From NCBI RefSeq assembly GCF_988242995.1, contig NZ_OZ547043.1: a stretch of 64,000 nt of DNA; one strand, 5' to 3'. Position 1 is the first letter of the stretch, and each line of letters starts with the position of its first letter. The position numbers and the translations under genes were made by a program. This document shows, one piece after another, positions 1 through 24,117 of this stretch. The notes beneath the pieces were generated by a model, which saw only the letters and a program-made list of their open reading frames with translations, was not told the DNA's origin and searched no databases.

Positions 1-580
1 CAAAGTGTTCTGCCATCAGCATAATGTCGCTTTCGCGCTCGCGCAGGGGCGGCAGTTGCACTACATCGAAAGCCAGCCGGTCGAGCAGGTCAGCGCGAAA
101 AGTACCTTCATTGACCATCGCCGGGAGATCGGCATTCGTCGCGCATACCAACCGCACATTCACCTGCAATGGCTGGCTGCCGCCAACGCGCTCCAGTTCA
201 CCGTACTCAATCACGCGCAATAATTTCTCCTGCACCATCATCGGTGCCGTAGCGAGTTCATCAAGAAATAGCGTACCGCCGTCGGCACGTTCAAATCTCC
301 CTGGATGACGTTTTTGCGCACCGGTAAACGCGCCCGCTTCGTGACCAAACAGTTCGGAATCCAGCAGATTTTCATTTAACGCCGCGCAGTTAAGGGAAAT
401 AAACGGCCCCTGCCAACGGGAGGAGAGATAATGCAGACGGCTGGCAATCAGCTCTTTACCTGTGCCGCGCTCGCCGATGATGAGCACCGGTTTGTCCAGC
501 GGTGCGAGATGCGAAACCTGTTCCAGCACTTCGAGAAAGCTGTTTGCCTCACCAAGTAAATTATCTTTGTATTCTGCCAT
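1..580 (-). CDS. pspF: Sigma54-dependent psp operon activator PspF, 5' part of gene lies outside window start
   Basis: Minus-strand translation from ATG at 578-580 reads MAEYKDNLLGEANS; divergent to pspA; AAA+ enhancer-binding family. Confidence 0.9.
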   Translation of the reverse strand, partial: MAEYKDNLLGEANSFLEVLEQVSHLAPLDKPVLIIGERGTGKELIASRLHYLSSRWQGPFISLNCAALNENLLDSELFGHEAGAFTGAQKRHPGRFERADGGTLFLDELATAPMMVQEKLLRVIEYGELERVGGSQPLQVNVRLVCATNADLPAMVNEGTFRADLLDRLAFDVVQLPPLRERESDIMLMAEHF

Positions 581-674
581 GATGAAATTCGCCACTTGTT
601 AGTGTAATTCGCTAACTCATCCTGGCATGTTGCTGTTGATTCTTCAATCAGATCTTTATAAATCAAAAAGATAA

Positions 675-1415
<741 letters not shown>

Positions 1416-1468
1416 TAACATCCAGGCGGCGTCCGAACGCGCCGCCGCTCATCGTCTAAGGAGTCCTT

Positions 1469-1693
1469 ATGAGCGCGCTATTTCTGGCTATTCCGTTAAC
1501 CATTTTTGTGCTGTTTGTTTTACCGATCTGGTTATGGCTGCATTACAGCAATCGTTCTGGTCGCAGTGAATTGTCGCAAAGTGAGCAGCAGCGATTAGCG
1601 CAACTGGCTGATGAAGCAAAACGGATGCGCGAACGTATTCAGGCGCTGGAATCCATTCTTGATGCAGAACATCCGAACTGGAGGGATCGCTAA
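1469..1693 (+). CDS. pspB: Phage shock protein B
   Basis: 74 aa membrane protein, overlaps pspC start. Confidence 0.93.
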   Translation: MSALFLAIPLTIFVLFVLPIWLWLHYSNRSGRSELSQSEQQRLAQLADEAKRMRERIQALESILDAEHPNWRDR

Positions 1694-2052
1694 TGGCGGG
1701 CATTAATCTCAATAAAAAATTATGGCGTATTCCACAGCAGGGTATGGTACGCGGCGTCTGCGCCGGGATTGCCAACTATTTTGATGTACCAGTAAAACTG
1801 GTGCGTATCCTGGTGGTGCTGTCGATTTTCTTCGGTCTGGCGCTGTTTACCCTGGTTGCTTACATCATTTTGTCATTTGCGCTTGATCCAATGCCGGACA
1901 ACATGGCCTTTGGTGAGCAGCTACCTTCCAGCAGCGAATTGCTGGATGAAGTCGACCGTGAACTGGCGGCAAGTGAAACGCGTTTACGCGAGATGGAACG
2001 TTATGTCACTTCCGATACTTTCACGTTACGTAGCCGTTTCCGTCAACTGTGA
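1693..2052 (+). CDS. pspC: Phage shock protein C
   Basis: 119 aa, translationally coupled to pspB. Confidence 0.93.
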
Positions 2053-2060
2053 GGAAAGTT

Positions 2061-2282
2061 ATGAATACTCGCTGGCAACAGGCCGGGCAAAAGGTGAAGC
2101 CTGGTTTCAAATTAGCAGGCAAGCTGGTACTTCTTACCGCACTGCGCTATGGCCCGGCGGGTGTAGCTGGCTGGGCGATAAAATCAGTTGCTCGCCGACC
2201 ACTGAAAATGTTGCTGGCCGTGGCGCTGGAACCGCTGTTAAGTCGGGCTGCCAATAAACTGGCGCAGCGTTATAAAAGGTGA
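2061..2282 (+). CDS. pspD: Phage shock protein D
   Basis: 73 aa from internal Met [10 protein letters not shown] of ORF 2049..2282. Confidence 0.85.
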
Positions 2283-2356
2283 GGGGAGTTTCGCAAAAAT
2301 TGTTAAAGCTAAGGCATATTATGGATGGCAATTTTCATCCATAGAAGGACGCTTAC

Positions 2357-2671
2357 ATGTTTAAAAAAGGCTTACTTGCTCTGACACTGGTGTTTTCACT
2401 GCCCGTTTTCGCCGCTGAACACTGGATCGATGTTCGTGTTCCAGAGCAGTATCAGCAAGAGCACGTTCAGGGGGCCATCAATATTCCCCTGAAGGAAGTA
2501 AAAGAGCGCATTGCCACCGCCGTTTCGGATAAAAACGACACCGTGAAAGTGTATTGCAATGCCGGACGCCAGTCAGGGCAGGCAAAAGAGATCCTTAGCG
2601 AGATGGGATATACTCACGTTGAGAACGCCGGTGGCCTGAAAGACATCGCAATGCCGAAGGTCAAAGGTTAA
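2357..2671 (+). CDS. pspE: Thiosulfate sulfurtransferase (rhodanese) PspE, periplasmic
   Basis: 104 aa with signal peptide and rhodanese CNAGRQS active-site loop. Confidence 0.92.
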   Translation: MFKKGLLALTLVFSLPVFAAEHWIDVRVPEQYQQEHVQGAINIPLKEVKERIATAVSDKNDTVKVYCNAGRQSGQAKEILSEMGYTHVENAGGLKDIAMPKVKG

Positions 2672-2789
2672 CAAATTACTTATTGAGCGGTGTAAACAAC
2701 GCCGCTTATTCATTTGATAAATCAAAATTAACCCACATTATTATCTCCAGTATCTAATCCTTTCTACAGCTTTCTGGCACAGGACAGCA

Positions 2790-4187
2790 ATGAAGCGACT
2801 TAAAAATGAACTCAATGCGCTGGTGAATCGGGGTGTCGACAGACATCTGCGCCTCGCTGTAACCGGACTTAGCCGTAGCGGCAAAACAGCGTTTATCACC
2901 GCGATGGTTAATCAGTTGCTCAATATTCATGCCGGAGCACGTTTGCCGCTTTTAAGTGCGGTGCGTGAAGAGCGCCTGCTGGGCGTAAAACGCATTCCCC
3001 AGCGTGACTTTGGCATTCCGCGCTTCACCTATGATGAAGGACTGGCGCAGTTATATGGCGATCCTCCTGCCTGGCCGACGCCAACGCGCGGCGTCAGTGA
3101 AATCCGCCTGGCGCTACGTTTTAAATCGAACGATTCGCTGCTACGCCACTTCAAGGACACCTCCACGCTGTATCTGGAGATTGTGGATTATCCCGGCGAA
3201 TGGCTGCTCGATCTGCCGATGTTGGCGCAGGACTATTTAAGCTGGTCGCGCCAGATGACGGGCTTACTTAATGGTCAGCGCGGCGAATGGTCGGGGAAAT
3301 GGCGAATGATGTGCGAAGGGCTGGACCCGCTAGCGCCTGCCGACGAAAACCGGCTGGCAGACATTGCCGCTGCGTGGACCGATTATCTCCACCACTGTAA
3401 ACAGCAGGGGCTGCACTTTATTCAGCCAGGGCGCTTTGTCTTGCCGGGAGATATGGCAGGTGCGCCCGCGCTGCAATTCTTCCCGTGGCCGGATATCGAT
3501 GCCTGGGGCGAGTCCAAACTGGCGCAGGCCGATAAGCATACCAATGCCGGAATGCTGCGCGAGCGGTTTAATTATTACTGCGAGAAAGTGGTGAAGGGGT
3601 TCTATAAGAATCATTTTCTGCGCTTTGACCGCCAGATTGTGCTGGTGGATTGCCTGCAGCCTCTCAACAGTGGGCCACAGGCATTTAATGATATGCGTCT
3701 GGCGCTGACGCAGCTGATGCAAAGTTTCCACTACGGGCAGCGAACCCTGTTCCGGCGTTTGTTTTCGCCGGTTATCGATAAGCTATTGTTTGCTGCCACT
3801 AAAGCAGACCATGTGACCATCGATCAGCACGCCAATATGGTTTCATTACTGCAACAACTAATTCAGGATGCCTGGCAAAATGCGGCGTTCGAAGGGATCA
3901 GCATGGATTGCCTGGGGCTGGCGTCTGTTCAGGCGACCACCAGCGGAATTATTGATGTTAACGGTGAGAAAATCCCGGCGCTGCGCGGTAATCGACTCAG
4001 CGATGGCGCACCGCTCACTGTTTATCCTGGCGAAGTTCCCGCACGTTTGCCAGGTCAGGCGTTCTGGGATAAGCAAGGCTTCCAGTTTGAGGCGTTTCGT
4101 CCGCAGGTGATGGATGTCGACAAACCGCTGCCGCATATTCGTCTTGATGCTGCGCTGGAATTTTTAATAGGAGATAAATTGCGATGA
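2790..4187 (+). CDS. ycjX: YcjX family P-loop NTPase (DUF463)
   Basis: 465 aa; Walker A GLSRSGKT near N-terminus. Confidence 0.9.
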
Positions 4188-5245
4188 CCGAACCGTTAAA
4201 ACCACGTATTGATTTCGACGGTCCACTGGAGGTTGATCAGAATCCAAAATTCAGGGCGCAACAGACCTTTGACGAAAATCAGGCGCAAAATTTTGCCCCG
4301 GCCACGCTCGACGAAGCGCAGGAAGAAGAGGGGCAAGTTGAAGCGGTGATGGACGCAGCGTTACGTCCGAAACGCAGCCTGTGGCGCAAAATGGTGATGG
4401 GCGGGTTGGCTCTGTTTGGCGCAAGCGTTGTCGGGCAGGGCGTGCAGTGGACAATGAACGCCTGGCAAACTCAGGATTGGGTAGCGCTGGGTGGATGTGC
4501 CGCTGGGGCATTGATTATCGGCGCTGGCGTAGGTTCTGTGGTAACAGAGTGGCGGCGCTTATGGCGCTTGCGACAGCGCGCCCATGAACGCGACGAAGCG
4601 CGCGATTTGTTGCACAGTCACGGTACGGGTAAAGGCCGCGCATTTTGCGAAAAACTGGCGCAGCAGGCGGGCATCGACCAGTCGCATCCGGCACTGCAAC
4701 GCTGGTATGCCTCAATCCATGAAACGCAAAACGATCGTGAAGTGGTCAGCCTGTATGCTCATCTGGTCCAGCCGGTTTTAGATGCCCAGGCGCGGCGCGA
4801 AATCAGCCGTTCGGCGGCGGAATCAACGTTGATGATTGCGGTCAGCCCGCTGGCGCTGGTGGATATGGCATTTATCGCCTGGCGCAATCTGCGTTTGATC
4901 AATCGCATCGCCACGCTGTATGGCATTGAACTGGGATATTACAGCCGTTTGCGCCTGTTTAAGCTGGTATTGCTGAATATCGCTTTCGCCGGAGCCAGCG
5001 AACTGGTGCGCGAAGTGGGGATGGACTGGATGTCGCAAGATCTCGCTGCGCGTTTGTCTACCCGGGCAGCTCAGGGGATTGGTGCAGGACTTCTGACGGC
5101 ACGACTGGGGATTAAAGCTATGGAGCTTTGCCGCCCTCTGCCGTGGATTGACGATGACAAACCTCGCCTCGGGGATTTCCGTCGTCAGCTTATCGGTCAG
5201 GTGAAAGAGACGCTGCAAAAAGGCAAAACGCCCAGCGAAAAATAA
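4184..5245 (+). CDS. ycjF: YcjF family inner membrane protein (DUF697)
   Basis: 353 aa; start overlaps ycjX stop (coupled). Confidence 0.9.
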
Positions 5246-5392
5246 TGCAATATCGGGTGCTGACCGGATATCTTTACGCCGAAGTGCCCGTTTTTCCGTC
5301 TTTGTGTCAATGATTGTTGACAGAAACCTTCCTGCTATCCAAATAGTGTCATATCATCATATTAATTGTTCTTTTTTCAGGTGAAGGTTCCC

Positions 5393-6934
5393 ATGCGTCT
5401 GGAAGTCTTTTGTGAAGACCGACTCGGTCTGACCCGCGAATTACTCGATCTACTCGTGCTAAGAGGCATTGATTTACGCGGTATTGAGATTGACCCCATT
5501 GGGCGAATCTACCTCAATTTTGCTGAACTGGAGTTTGAGAGTTTCAGCAGTCTGATGGCCGAAATACGCCGTATTGCAGGTGTTACCGATGTCCGTACTG
5601 TCCCGTGGATGCCTTCTGAACGTGAGCATCTGGCGTTGAGCGCGTTACTGGAAGCGTTGCCTGAACCTGTGCTCTCTGTCGATATGAAAAGCAAAGTGGA
5701 TATGGCGAACCCGGCGAGCTGTCAGCTTTTTGGGCAAAAATTGGATCGCCTGCGCAACCATACCGCCGCGCAATTGATTAACGGCTTTAATTTTTTGCGT
5801 TGGCTGGAAAGCGAACCGCAGGATTCGCATAACGAGCATGTCGTTATTAATGGGCAGAATTTCCTGATGGAGATTACGCCTGTTTATCTTCAGGATGAAA
5901 ATGATCAACACGTCCTGACCGGTGCGGTGGTGATGTTGCGATCAACGATTCGTATGGGTCGTCAGTTGCAAAATGTCGCCGCCCAGGACGTCAGCGCCTT
6001 TAGTCAAATTGTCGCCGTCAGCCCGAAAATGAAGCATGTTGTCGAACAGGCGCAGAAACTGGCGATGCTAAGCGCGCCATTGCTGATAACCGGTGATACC
6101 GGCACCGGAAAAGATCTCTTTGCGTATGCCTGTCATCAGGCAAGCCCACGCGCGGGCAAACCCTATCTGGCGCTGAACTGTGCTTCTATCCCGGAAGATG
6201 CGGTCGAGAGTGAACTGTTTGGTCATGCTCCGGAAGGGAAGAAAGGGTTCTTTGAGCAGGCGAACGGTGGTTCGGTACTGCTGGATGAAATAGGTGAGAT
6301 GTCACCACGGATGCAGGCGAAATTACTGCGTTTCCTTAATGATGGCACTTTCCGTCGGGTTGGCGAAGACCATGAGGTGCATGTCGATGTGCGGGTGATT
6401 TGCGCTACGCAGAAGAATCTGGTCGAACTGGTGCAAAAAGGCGTGTTCCGTGAAGATCTCTATTATCGTCTGAACGTGTTGACGCTCAATCTGCCGCCGC
6501 TACGTGACTGTCCGCAGGACATCATGCCTTTAACCGAGCTGTTCGTCGCCCGCTTTGCCGACGAGCAGGGCGTGCCGCGTCCGAAACTGGCCGCTGACCT
6601 GAATACTGTACTTACGCGTTATGCGTGGCCGGGAAATGTGCGGCAGTTAAAGAACGCTATTTATCGCGCACTAACACAACTGGACGGTTATGAGCTGCGT
6701 CCTCAGGATATTTTGTTGCCGGATTATGACGCCGCAACGGTAGCCGTGGGCGAAGATGCGATGGAAGGTTCGCTGGACGAAATCACCAGCCGTTTTGAAC
6801 GCTCGGTATTAACCCAGCTTTATCGCAATTATCCCAGCACGCGCAAACTGGCAAAACGTCTCGGCGTTTCGCATACCGCGATTGCCAATAAGTTGCGGGA
6901 ATATGGTCTGAGTCAGAAGAAGAACGAAGAGTAA
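5393..6934 (+). CDS. tyrR: Transcriptional regulator TyrR
   Basis: 513 aa from MRLEVFCEDRLGLTREL; AAA+ GDTGTGK motif; C-terminal HTH. Confidence 0.95.
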   Translation: MRLEVFCEDRLGLTRELLDLLVLRGIDLRGIEIDPIGRIYLNFAELEFESFSSLMAEIRRIAGVTDVRTVPWMPSEREHLALSALLEALPEPVLSVDMKSKVDMANPASCQLFGQKLDRLRNHTAAQLINGFNFLRWLESEPQDSHNEHVVINGQNFLMEITPVYLQDENDQHVLTGAVVMLRSTIRMGRQLQNVAAQDVSAFSQIVAVSPKMKHVVEQAQKLAMLSAPLLITGDTGTGKDLFAYACHQASPRAGKPYLALNCASIPEDAVESELFGHAPEGKKGFFEQANGGSVLLDEIGEMSPRMQAKLLRFLNDGTFRRVGEDHEVHVDVRVICATQKNLVELVQKGVFREDLYYRLNVLTLNLPPLRDCPQDIMPLTELFVARFADEQGVPRPKLAADLNTVLTRYAWPGNVRQLKNAIYRALTQLDGYELRPQDILLPDYDAATVAVGEDAMEGSLDEITSRFERSVLTQLYRNYPSTRKLAKRLGVSHTAIANKLREYGLSQKKNEE

Positions 6935-6942
6935 GCGCGAAT

Positions 6943-6974
6943 ATGCCTGATGGTGCAACACCATCAGGCATATT
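6943..6974. terminator. Bidirectional hairpin terminator between convergent tyrR and tpx
   Basis: Inverted repeat ATATGCCTGATGGTG-CAAC-ACCATCAGGCATAT. Confidence 0.6.
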
Positions 6975-6977
6975 AAC

Positions 6978-7484
6978 TTATGCTTTCAGTACAGCCAGAG
7001 CTGCTTCGTAATCCGGCTCGGTGGTGATTTCATCCACCAGTTGGCTGAAAATCACATTGTCATTTTCATCAATAACCACAACGGCACGCGCTGCCAGACC
7101 TTTCAGTGGGCCATCAGCAATTGCCACACCGTAGGCTTGCAGGAATTCAGCGTTACGGAAAGTGGAGAGGGTGATAACGTTGTTCAGACCTTCTGCGCCG
7201 CAGAAACGAGACTGGGCGAACGGCAGATCGGCAGAAATACACAGCACAACGGTGTTGTCGATCTCGGTTGCCAGTTGGTTAAACTTACGTACTGATGCGG
7301 CGCAAACACCGGTATCAATACTCGGGAAAATGTTCAGCACTTTGCGTTTACCCGCAAACTGACCGAGGGTGACGTCAGACAGATCTTTTGCCACGAGAGT
7401 AAAAGTCTGCGCTTTGCTACCCGCCTGCGGGATGGAATTGGCGACTGTAACCGGGTTGCCCTGGAAATGAACGGTTTGTGACAT
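6978..7484 (-). CDS. tpx: Thiol peroxidase
   Basis: 168 aa [28 protein letters not shown]. Confidence 0.95.
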
Positions 7485-7592
7485 GATTATCTTTCCTGTT
7501 TACATATAGTTAACGTCACACCTAGTTTATGCTAACTGTCAATAACACAGCAAACGCTATTTGCGCTTAATCCGCAGACCACCGCGACAACA

Positions 7593-8542
<950 letters not shown>

Positions 8543-8568
<26 letters not shown>

Positions 8569-9271
8569 GATGCCAGCGCAGCAAGTTTGCCATCGCAAAG
8601 AGATATTTTTCGCTGGCTTCGTCGGAGGAGATGGGGGGAAACTCTGCGGTGATGCAATGCAGGTTGAGATCCGCACACCAACTACCGAAAGAGCCAGGTG
8701 TTTCATAACCGACGCTGGTTACCAGAGGCAATTCAAACGCCTGGGCCAGCCATTCGCCTAATTCGCTGTGTCTGGGATCTTCAATACAGGCCAGCGGATC
8801 GTGGAATGAGACCACCCAGGCGGGTTGAATGCGGTGTATAAGCTGGCACAGCGCCTGGGTTTCAGGTTCAGAGCCAGGTTTGTCACCTGTCAGCAATACG
8901 ACATCACGTTCTTCAGCGGCGCTGTTCCAGCGATAAACGGTTTCACCTTCCTTCCAGTTCGCCGCCGGAAAGTTTCTGTTTAAATCCACACCATTAGCAT
9001 TGGCCCGTAACCCCAACTGGCAGCCGTCAGGATTCACACACAGCACCACATGATGGCGGCGCAAAGACGGTGTCAAAGTCCGCAGAGCACAGGAGAGCGT
9101 GACGACCGAAGAGTTTTCATCACCGTGAGTGCCAGCCAGAATCAAACCACTTTCGCGGCTGGCTGCAGGGGCCGGAAACCAGATTAACGGCGCGCCCAAT
9201 AATGAACGTCCGTAATGTTCTGTTCCGGGCGGAAATGCGCCGCGTTCGGCGCGTGGGCGAGTTACGGTCAT
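8543..9271 (-). CDS. mpaA: Murein tripeptide amidase A (gamma-D-Glu-Dap amidase)
   Basis: 242 aa from MTVTRPRAERGAFPPG; 3' end overlaps convergent ycjG. Confidence 0.88.
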
Positions 9272-23890: not shown

Positions 23891-24117
23891 GACTGTGTTA
23901 TAACGGTTTTAACCTTTAGTTGCCAATTTTCTTCAGTGACAGATTTCACGAAAATATAAGTTACATTATTAATATCGTGAATGAATAATCATGCATAAGC
24001 ATTTTGCTTAAAATATCGGCAACATTTGGAACTCATTACTGGAAATTTGGGTAATACGTTGTTGGACCGACCCGGTCTGGTTATCATATCGCGCTCTTAA
24101 TTGCGGGAGGATGTAAC

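Follow-up and report, generated by a model that had tools for sequence, protein, structure and literature searches.

The window, as we call the whole 64,000-nucleotide stretch of DNA analysed here, carries pspE directly next to ycjX, with a short spacer between them that very probably never held the gene island found at this place in most other E. coli. In the history that we propose with this degree of confidence, the window would retain the ancestral pspABCDE-ycjX-ycjF-tyrR order, in which a conserved terminator of its own would close pspE, with the ycjX promoter about 5-25 bp further on. A 14.0-14.1-kb cluster (ycjMNOPQRSTUV, ompG, ycjW) would have been inserted in most other E. coli between that terminator and that promoter, at a time predating the divergence of the phylogroups, and the spacer of the phylogroup-D-type haplotype would have stayed free of it throughout. 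The phenomenon is already known in kind, as it is the lineage-specific presence or absence of a known accessory cluster in a known conserved neighbourhood.

The pspE-ycjX junction and its distribution

The window starts with the truncated pspF' on the reverse strand, ahead of pspA. The forward-strand ORFs pspA (747-1415), pspB (1469-1693) and pspC (1693-2052) are each 100% identical to the K-12 protein by tblastn and are annotated at the same coordinates in the colinear genome 19KM1831; pspD (2061-2282, forward strand) is also 100% identical to K-12 by tblastn and annotated at the same place in that genome, and it scores 136 bits against the NCBIfam PspD equivalog. The pspE gene (2357-2671, forward strand) is an intact ORF for a thiosulfate sulfurtransferase (rhodanese) of 104 aa, 98% identical to K-12 PspE, with 211.5 bits against the NCBIfam PspE equivalog NF007627 (cut-off 102). 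It is followed on the same strand by ycjX (2790-4187), an intact ORF of 465 aa that is 99% identical to K-12 YcjX, and by an intact ycjF (4184-5245; 99-100% to K-12 by tblastn, 433 bits against TIGR01620). Downstream of ycjF come tyrR (5393-6934; an ORF, named from the annotation of the colinear genome) and then tpx on the reverse strand (6978-7484). From psp to tpx, the proteins of the window show 98-100% identity to their K-12 counterparts by tblastn. With the pspE stop codon ending at 2671 and the ATG of ycjX located at 2790, a forward-strand spacer of exactly 118 bp (2672-2789) is left, which confirms the adjacency, with about 118 bp between the genes, that was reported in the initial annotation of this DNA. 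We refer to this spacer, which we read as an uninterrupted ancestral intergenic region, as the empty site.

In the K-12 derivative HST04 (locus L001), 14,113 bp separate the end of pspE (19500) from the start of ycjX (33614), and this interval is occupied by ycjM, N, O, P, Q, R, S and T, pgmB (ycjU), a frameshifted ycjV, ompG and, on the reverse strand, ycjW, so that the K-12 gene order given in the initial annotation was right according to the annotation of this locus; the block that it placed there is present, although its size is 14.1 kb and not the 15 kb that had been estimated. This cluster, the YcjW regulon for kojibiose/glucosylglycerate catabolism together with the OmpG porin, occupies the same neighbourhood as the empty site, between flanking genes 96-99% identical to those of the window, but all of its 12 genes are absent from the window. 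In fact, the ycj island proteins gave no tblastn match anywhere within the 64 kb, and the claim that this strain lacks the island holds.

The pspE-ycjX interval measures 14,043-14,113 bp across K-12 (phylogroup A), 55989 (B1), O157:H7 (E), IAI39 (F) and CFT073 (B2), and all five representatives share the same sequence at the left junction and at the right one. In RefSeq, the genes annotated in the island of these five genomes are all metabolic, transport, porin or regulator genes, with no integrase or transposase. Likewise, ARAGORN detected no tRNA or tmRNA in positions 1-9000 of the window, Rfam gave no match in positions 2200-3000 at E ≤ 1, and no foreign base composition was seen, the G+C content of the island being 0.44-0.56 per kb versus 0.45-0.57 in the flanks. 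The pseudogenes of the island vary by strain, with a ycjV frameshift in K-12 (L001 30318-31399), a ycjM frameshift and a ycjN stop in O157:H7 (L086 20710-23694) and a ycjS stop in 55989 (L087 27327-28382); such differences among strains suggest relaxed selection.

A 1,118-bp query across the window junction was run against 5,426 complete E. coli genomes, 5,423 of which matched. The junction was contiguous in 372 of the 5,426 (6.9%), all of them at least about 98% identical over the 1,118 bp; in the other matching genomes the query was found in two pieces, with breaks at window position 2690 and at about 2771-2777. A 95-bp piece from the middle of the spacer (2686-2780) occurred in those same 372 genomes, in one copy each and at 95-100% identity, and can serve as a clean single-copy marker for the empty haplotype. 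In the converse search, where K-12 ompG-ycjW-ycjX was the query and matches with a coverage of at least 80% were counted, the right-hand end of the island (ompG-ycjW joined to ycjX) was present in 4,997 of the 5,426 genomes (about 92%). By these two queries, some 57 genomes had neither the contiguous junction nor the island right-hand end. The chance that the window owes its adjacency to an island collapsed or dropped during contig assembly is negligible, since the identical contiguous junction was found in 372 independently assembled complete genomes, and four of the island-lacking genomes listed (H186-H189) matched the converse query at the ycjX end only. The latter observation also argues against the island genes being located elsewhere in the genome.

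Among the named genomes with an empty site are strain 042 and an O166:H15 strain, both of phylogroup D (PMC7500659). The best 24-kb match of the window is also 042, at 99.1%, with no genome in the collection matching better than about 99.1%, and the psp and tyrR flanks of the window cluster with those of 042. Judged by these similarities, the window belongs to a phylogroup-D-type haplotype shared by 042 and 371 other complete genomes, where the phylogroup of the 372 is taken from a few named strains and from flank similarity rather than from whole-genome typing. Strain 042 and other phylogroup D genomes have an identical 118-bp spacer and the same pspF-pspABCDE-ycjX-ycjF-tyrR-tpx order as the window. 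In the literature collection that was searched, there was no specific statement that phylogroup D lacks ycj/ompG. According to its citation in PMC13118800, the work of Deng et al. (2014, Water Res) uses ycjM, a gene of variable presence, as a marker for enteric E. coli and notes its absence, as with the island here, from some Escherichia, namely environmental and cryptic-clade isolates; however, the frame of that work as cited is enteric versus environmental, whereas the empty genomes found here are mostly human and animal isolates of a 042-type lineage.

Other presence/absence differences were observed nearby. In CFT073 (L084 8944-9616), the puuPADRCBE cluster is missing between ymjA and pspF, where just a small annotated pseudogene remnant is found, a further difference of this type located one gene from the psp operon. 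About 110 bp separate abgR from smrA in the window (23997-24107), while the otherwise colinear 19KM1831 has a 3.6-kb block at that place (an HTH regulator, an HlyD-family protein and a frameshifted DHA2 MFS transporter), of which CFT073 keeps decayed remnants. The colinearity of the window with 19KM1831 stops beside ttcA. The 24 kb that come next (~30080-54000, and probably beyond) are matched at 99.9%, in a few dozen genomes, by a Rac-like prophage with intR, recE, trkG and a DNA cytosine methyltransferase.

Ancestry of the spacer

The gene order in other bacteria was surveyed by a YcjX scan of one genome per species, which gave 80 loci, followed by tblastn of the psp, island and ycjXF proteins. 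In most of the ~80 loci (Enterobacterales, Vibrionaceae and Aeromonas), ycjX-ycjF, mostly with tyrR behind it, comes directly after the last psp gene. This adjacency was seen in E. albertii, in the cryptic-clade-like Escherichia of locus L004 (named 'E. coli'), in Citrobacter youngae, Phytobacter, most Enterobacter, Kluyvera, Kosakonia and Serratia, and also in Yersinia, Pantoea, Erwinia, Photorhabdus, Proteus, Vibrionaceae and Aeromonas. The window has this same layout, that is, the last psp gene, a short spacer and then ycjX, ycjF and tyrR on the same strand. As the adjacency is found in the outgroups and in most Enterobacterales, the direct psp-ycjX order is ancestral and the island state derived.

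The linkage of psp and ycjXF has been described for many Gammaproteobacteria (Huvet et al., 2011, PMC3041696; Darwin, 2005, cited therein), and the systems treated in PMC3041696 resemble the window in having ycjX-ycjF immediately 3' of the last psp gene and on the same strand. On the evidence of that paper and of the loci surveyed here, pspE is a late addition at the end of the psp operon. The portion of PMC3041696 considered here uses K-12, with its separated genes, as the reference for E. coli and describes no E. coli with direct pspE-ycjX adjacency.

The spacer itself (2672-2789) is 100% identical in N3, 042 and 19KM1831, and it aligns end to end with those of L004 (90.7%) and E. albertii (85.8%). 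Both figures come near the divergence of the genes on either side, which is 6-9% for L004 and 9-11% for E. albertii. The homology of the window to K-12, on the other hand, is lost at about 2690 and becomes strong again only at 2777, where a 13-nt block on the forward strand, GCACAGGACAGCA (2777-2789), in the ycjX ribosome-binding region is identical in the empty and the K-12 island haplotypes. The central 86 bp of the spacer showed no significant similarity to the K-12 island flanks; when the anchor blocks were left out, 266 of 2,000 and 478 of 2,000 shuffles scored as well as the local alignments of the spacer with these flanks. The idea of an ancestral hairpin duplicated at both island ends was dropped, as the flank alignments were no better than shuffles.

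These comparisons bear on the possibility that the window arose by simple deletion from a K-12-like arrangement, with 2672-2789 as the scar. The only candidate for its substrate is TTTTTTTTCTG, an 11-nt T-rich direct match near both K-12 island ends (L001 19534-19544 and 33578-33588), which exceeds in length whatever 300 mononucleotide shuffles produced and might, in principle, have served for a deletion; no other match, and no convincing flanking repeats, were found at the island ends. The relaxed selection suggested by the strain-specific pseudogenes would also be in line with loss of the island. However, this repeat is of low complexity and is not reflected in the empty spacer, and a deletion between its two copies is estimated to leave ~70-75 bp of K-12-type flanks, versus the 118 bp found here. 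Moreover, the central 86 bp of the spacer are unlike the K-12 flanks, and over its whole length it is 86-91% identical to the outgroup spacers. Because a deletion cannot recreate an ancestral sequence, the match to the outgroup spacers means that 2672-2789 is not a deletion scar, and we consider an origin by simple deletion very improbable. A scar or repeat at these positions, contemplated in the initial annotation, was thus looked for with a negative outcome; what is found there is an intact ancestral intergenic region.

Terminator, promoter and insertion point

A terminator scan and folding located a forward-strand stem-loop at 2684-2708, beginning 12 nt past the pspE stop, with 10 pairs (5 of them G-C) formed by the arms 2684-2693 and 2699-2708 and with AAACA as the 5-nt loop. 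Its centroid energy is -14.7 kcal/mol (z = -4.8), and none of 200 shuffles folded as well. A hairpin is present at the same place after pspE in nine sequences (Escherichia of both haplotypes, Citrobacter and Phytobacter), among which 5 of the 10 pairs are preserved via compensatory double changes. The T-rich tail TTCATTTGAT at 2709-2718 satisfies the 5-of-8 rule of the scan, yet it is interrupted; the K-12 pspE terminator has a different stem and a run of nine Ts, so that the U-tract of the window is the weaker of the two. The stability and the compensatory changes support the prediction that the hairpin at 2684-2708 is the pspE terminator, in agreement with the initial annotation, which had proposed that role for a hairpin near 2683-2712.

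Further downstream, a sigma-70-type scan pointed to a promoter-like region for ycjX on the forward strand (2714-2741), composed of TTGATA at 2714-2719, 16 nt, and CATTAT at 2736-2741. The sequence CCCACATT at 2732-2739 overlaps CATTAT and resembles a sigma-32 -10 element. TTGATAA (2714-2720) is invariant in the eight aligned spacers, and, as read by eye, many Enterobacteriaceae have a -35-like hexamer followed by a CCCCAT/CCCACAT element, with which CCCACATT lines up, equally far from the ycjX ATG. A sigma-32 promoter has been reported for ycjX (PMC3041696, citing Nonaka, 2006). TTGATA and CCCACATT would fit such a promoter, and we propose the region as the putative ycjX promoter.

In K-12, the terminator hairpin lies to the left of the island and the TTGATAA..TCAA block to its right. 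From the alignments, the equivalent of the island position in other E. coli would be 2709-2713 in the window (no strand assigned), between the terminator and the -35 element of the ycjX promoter. This putative insertion point is good to about ±10 bp, as the remnant similarity is weak and, without the anchor blocks, non-significant on shuffling. The 80 nt located 5' of ycjX in K-12 (L001 33534-33613) are only 68% identical to 2710-2789 of the window. A donor for the island haplotype was sought with these 80 nt and none was identified, the identity being 51-70% to every sampled genus, including the island-bearing Enterobacter and Lelliottia. The comparison suggests that the island haplotype brought its own, foreign, intergenic DNA.

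The 80 nt that precede ycjX in island-bearing E. coli show only 66-71% identity to the empty allele, while the flanking genes differ by 2-4%; the empty allele of the same stretch is 90% identical to that of E. albertii. On the other side of the island, conservation between E. coli and Enterobacter covers the region upstream of ycjM (TTTGCG.CAGCTCACA, TTGACAG, GGAGTAG, TGGGACCGCTACCA; L001 19573-19712 versus L092 4860-4975). By this conservation, the region marks the putative true left edge of the transferred cluster, ~70 nt past the pspE stop, and the YcjW operator probably lies within it.

The position of the cluster relative to pspE varies among genera. The order is pspD-pspE-island-ycjX in E. 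coli, pspD-island-pspE-ycjX in the Citrobacter werkmanii type, and pspD-island-ycjX, without pspE, in the Enterobacter cloacae type; the loci that illustrate the three positions are L060 (4318-6001), L094 (10938-12639), L095 (4702-5097) and, for Enterobacter, L091 and L092. A speculative extension, to which we assign a rather low probability, is that the psp-ycjX gap may be a recurrent landing site for the same ~14-kb ycjM-ompG-ycjW cluster, used at three positions relative to pspE in three genera and with no mobile-element genes. In E. coli, the arrival of the block would also have replaced the DNA of the pspE terminator and the ycjX promoter with sequence of foreign-level divergence, and the polymorphism of empty and occupied sites would be older than the phylogroup radiation and persist in D.

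Age of the island and meaning of its absence

The island differs by 1.5% between phylogroups A and B1, by 3.2% to E and by 4.4-4.8% to F and B2, a divergence at least as deep as that of the flanking core genes. Since these values follow the accepted phylogroup relationships, the island is old in the species and does not represent a gain by K-12. The initial annotation had offered a gain in K-12 as the alternative to this strain lacking the island. That the island is the derived state stands, as the genes are adjacent in the outgroups; a K-12-specific gain does not, given the 4,997 of 5,426 genomes with the right-hand end of the island and the presence of the whole island in representatives of phylogroups A, B1, E, F and B2.

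Seven genomes with the empty site were compared, namely the window, N3, 042, 19KM1831, RM14516, S1-ZIM-01-A and 266917_2. Their spacers are 0-1 base apart, and their psp and tyrR genes cluster at a difference of at most 1.5%. They differ from the other phylogroups by 1.2-3.5% in psp and tyrR and by 2.5-5.4% in ycjX-ycjF, and from L004 and E. albertii by 6-12% in the flanks. There is thus no excess of flank divergence and nothing to indicate that the empty allele came from outside E. coli, an origin that we rejected on these grounds. The alleles of ycjX-ycjF differ by up to 5% among the empty genomes. These two genes are, in general, unusually polymorphic (3-5% between phylogroups) and mosaic (window 2790-5245, L096 5119-7574, L097 5014-7469); RM14516 and S1-ZIM-01-A carry ycjXF similar to that of 55989 (B1), with a 0.9-2.2% difference, within D-like psp and tyrR flanks. 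B1-like ycjXF in D-like flanks places recombination breakpoints right beside the spacer.

Two histories could account for the empty site in lineage D. We lean, by a modest margin of confidence, towards lineage D having simply retained the empty allele. In the usual phylogeny of E. coli, D branches after B2/F/G. With D placed there and an island tree that looks vertical (B2, F, E, A/B1), retention would require incomplete lineage sorting or a spread of the island within the species by recombination. The other history, which seems to us possible but rather doubtful, is a secondary allelic replacement, in which an island-bearing ancestor of D would have received an island-free allele from a close relative via recombination across pspE-ycjX. 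The deep island tree, congruent with the phylogroups (1.5-4.8%), suggests that the ancestor common to B2, F, E and A/B1 already had the island, and phylogenies usually nest D within this set; recombination next to the spacer is, in addition, frequent, as RM14516 and S1-ZIM-01-A exemplify. However, the flanks of the empty genomes are those of ordinary E. coli, no further from the other phylogroups (1.2-2% in psp, 2-4% in ycjXF and tyrR) than the island-bearing phylogroups are from one another, nothing points to a tract imported from beyond the species, and within E. coli sensu stricto no donor was identified. Whether by retention, which we prefer, or by replacement, the DNA at 2672-2789 never held the island.

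As to the functions involved, which we take from RefSeq gene names and from the K-12 literature, the strain is expected to be without OmpG, an ABC transporter, the kojibiose and glucosylglycerate phosphorylases, a beta-phosphoglucomutase and the LacI-type repressor YcjW. The YcjW of K-12 controls the ycjM operon, with a binding site upstream of ycjM, and when it is lost, pspE mRNA and PspE-dependent H2S production rise (PMC6599011). With YcjW absent, this effect on the expression of pspE could not operate in the present strain, and the K-12 models that tie YcjW to pspE and H2S would not transfer to about 7% of E. coli. The finding matters mainly for annotation, as it defines a 042-like, phylogroup D type of strain without OmpG, the YcjW regulon and the kojibiose/glucosylglycerate pathway. 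It also corrects a view of this locus centred on K-12, since the psp-ycjX adjacency is the ancestral state and the separation of these genes in K-12 the derived one.
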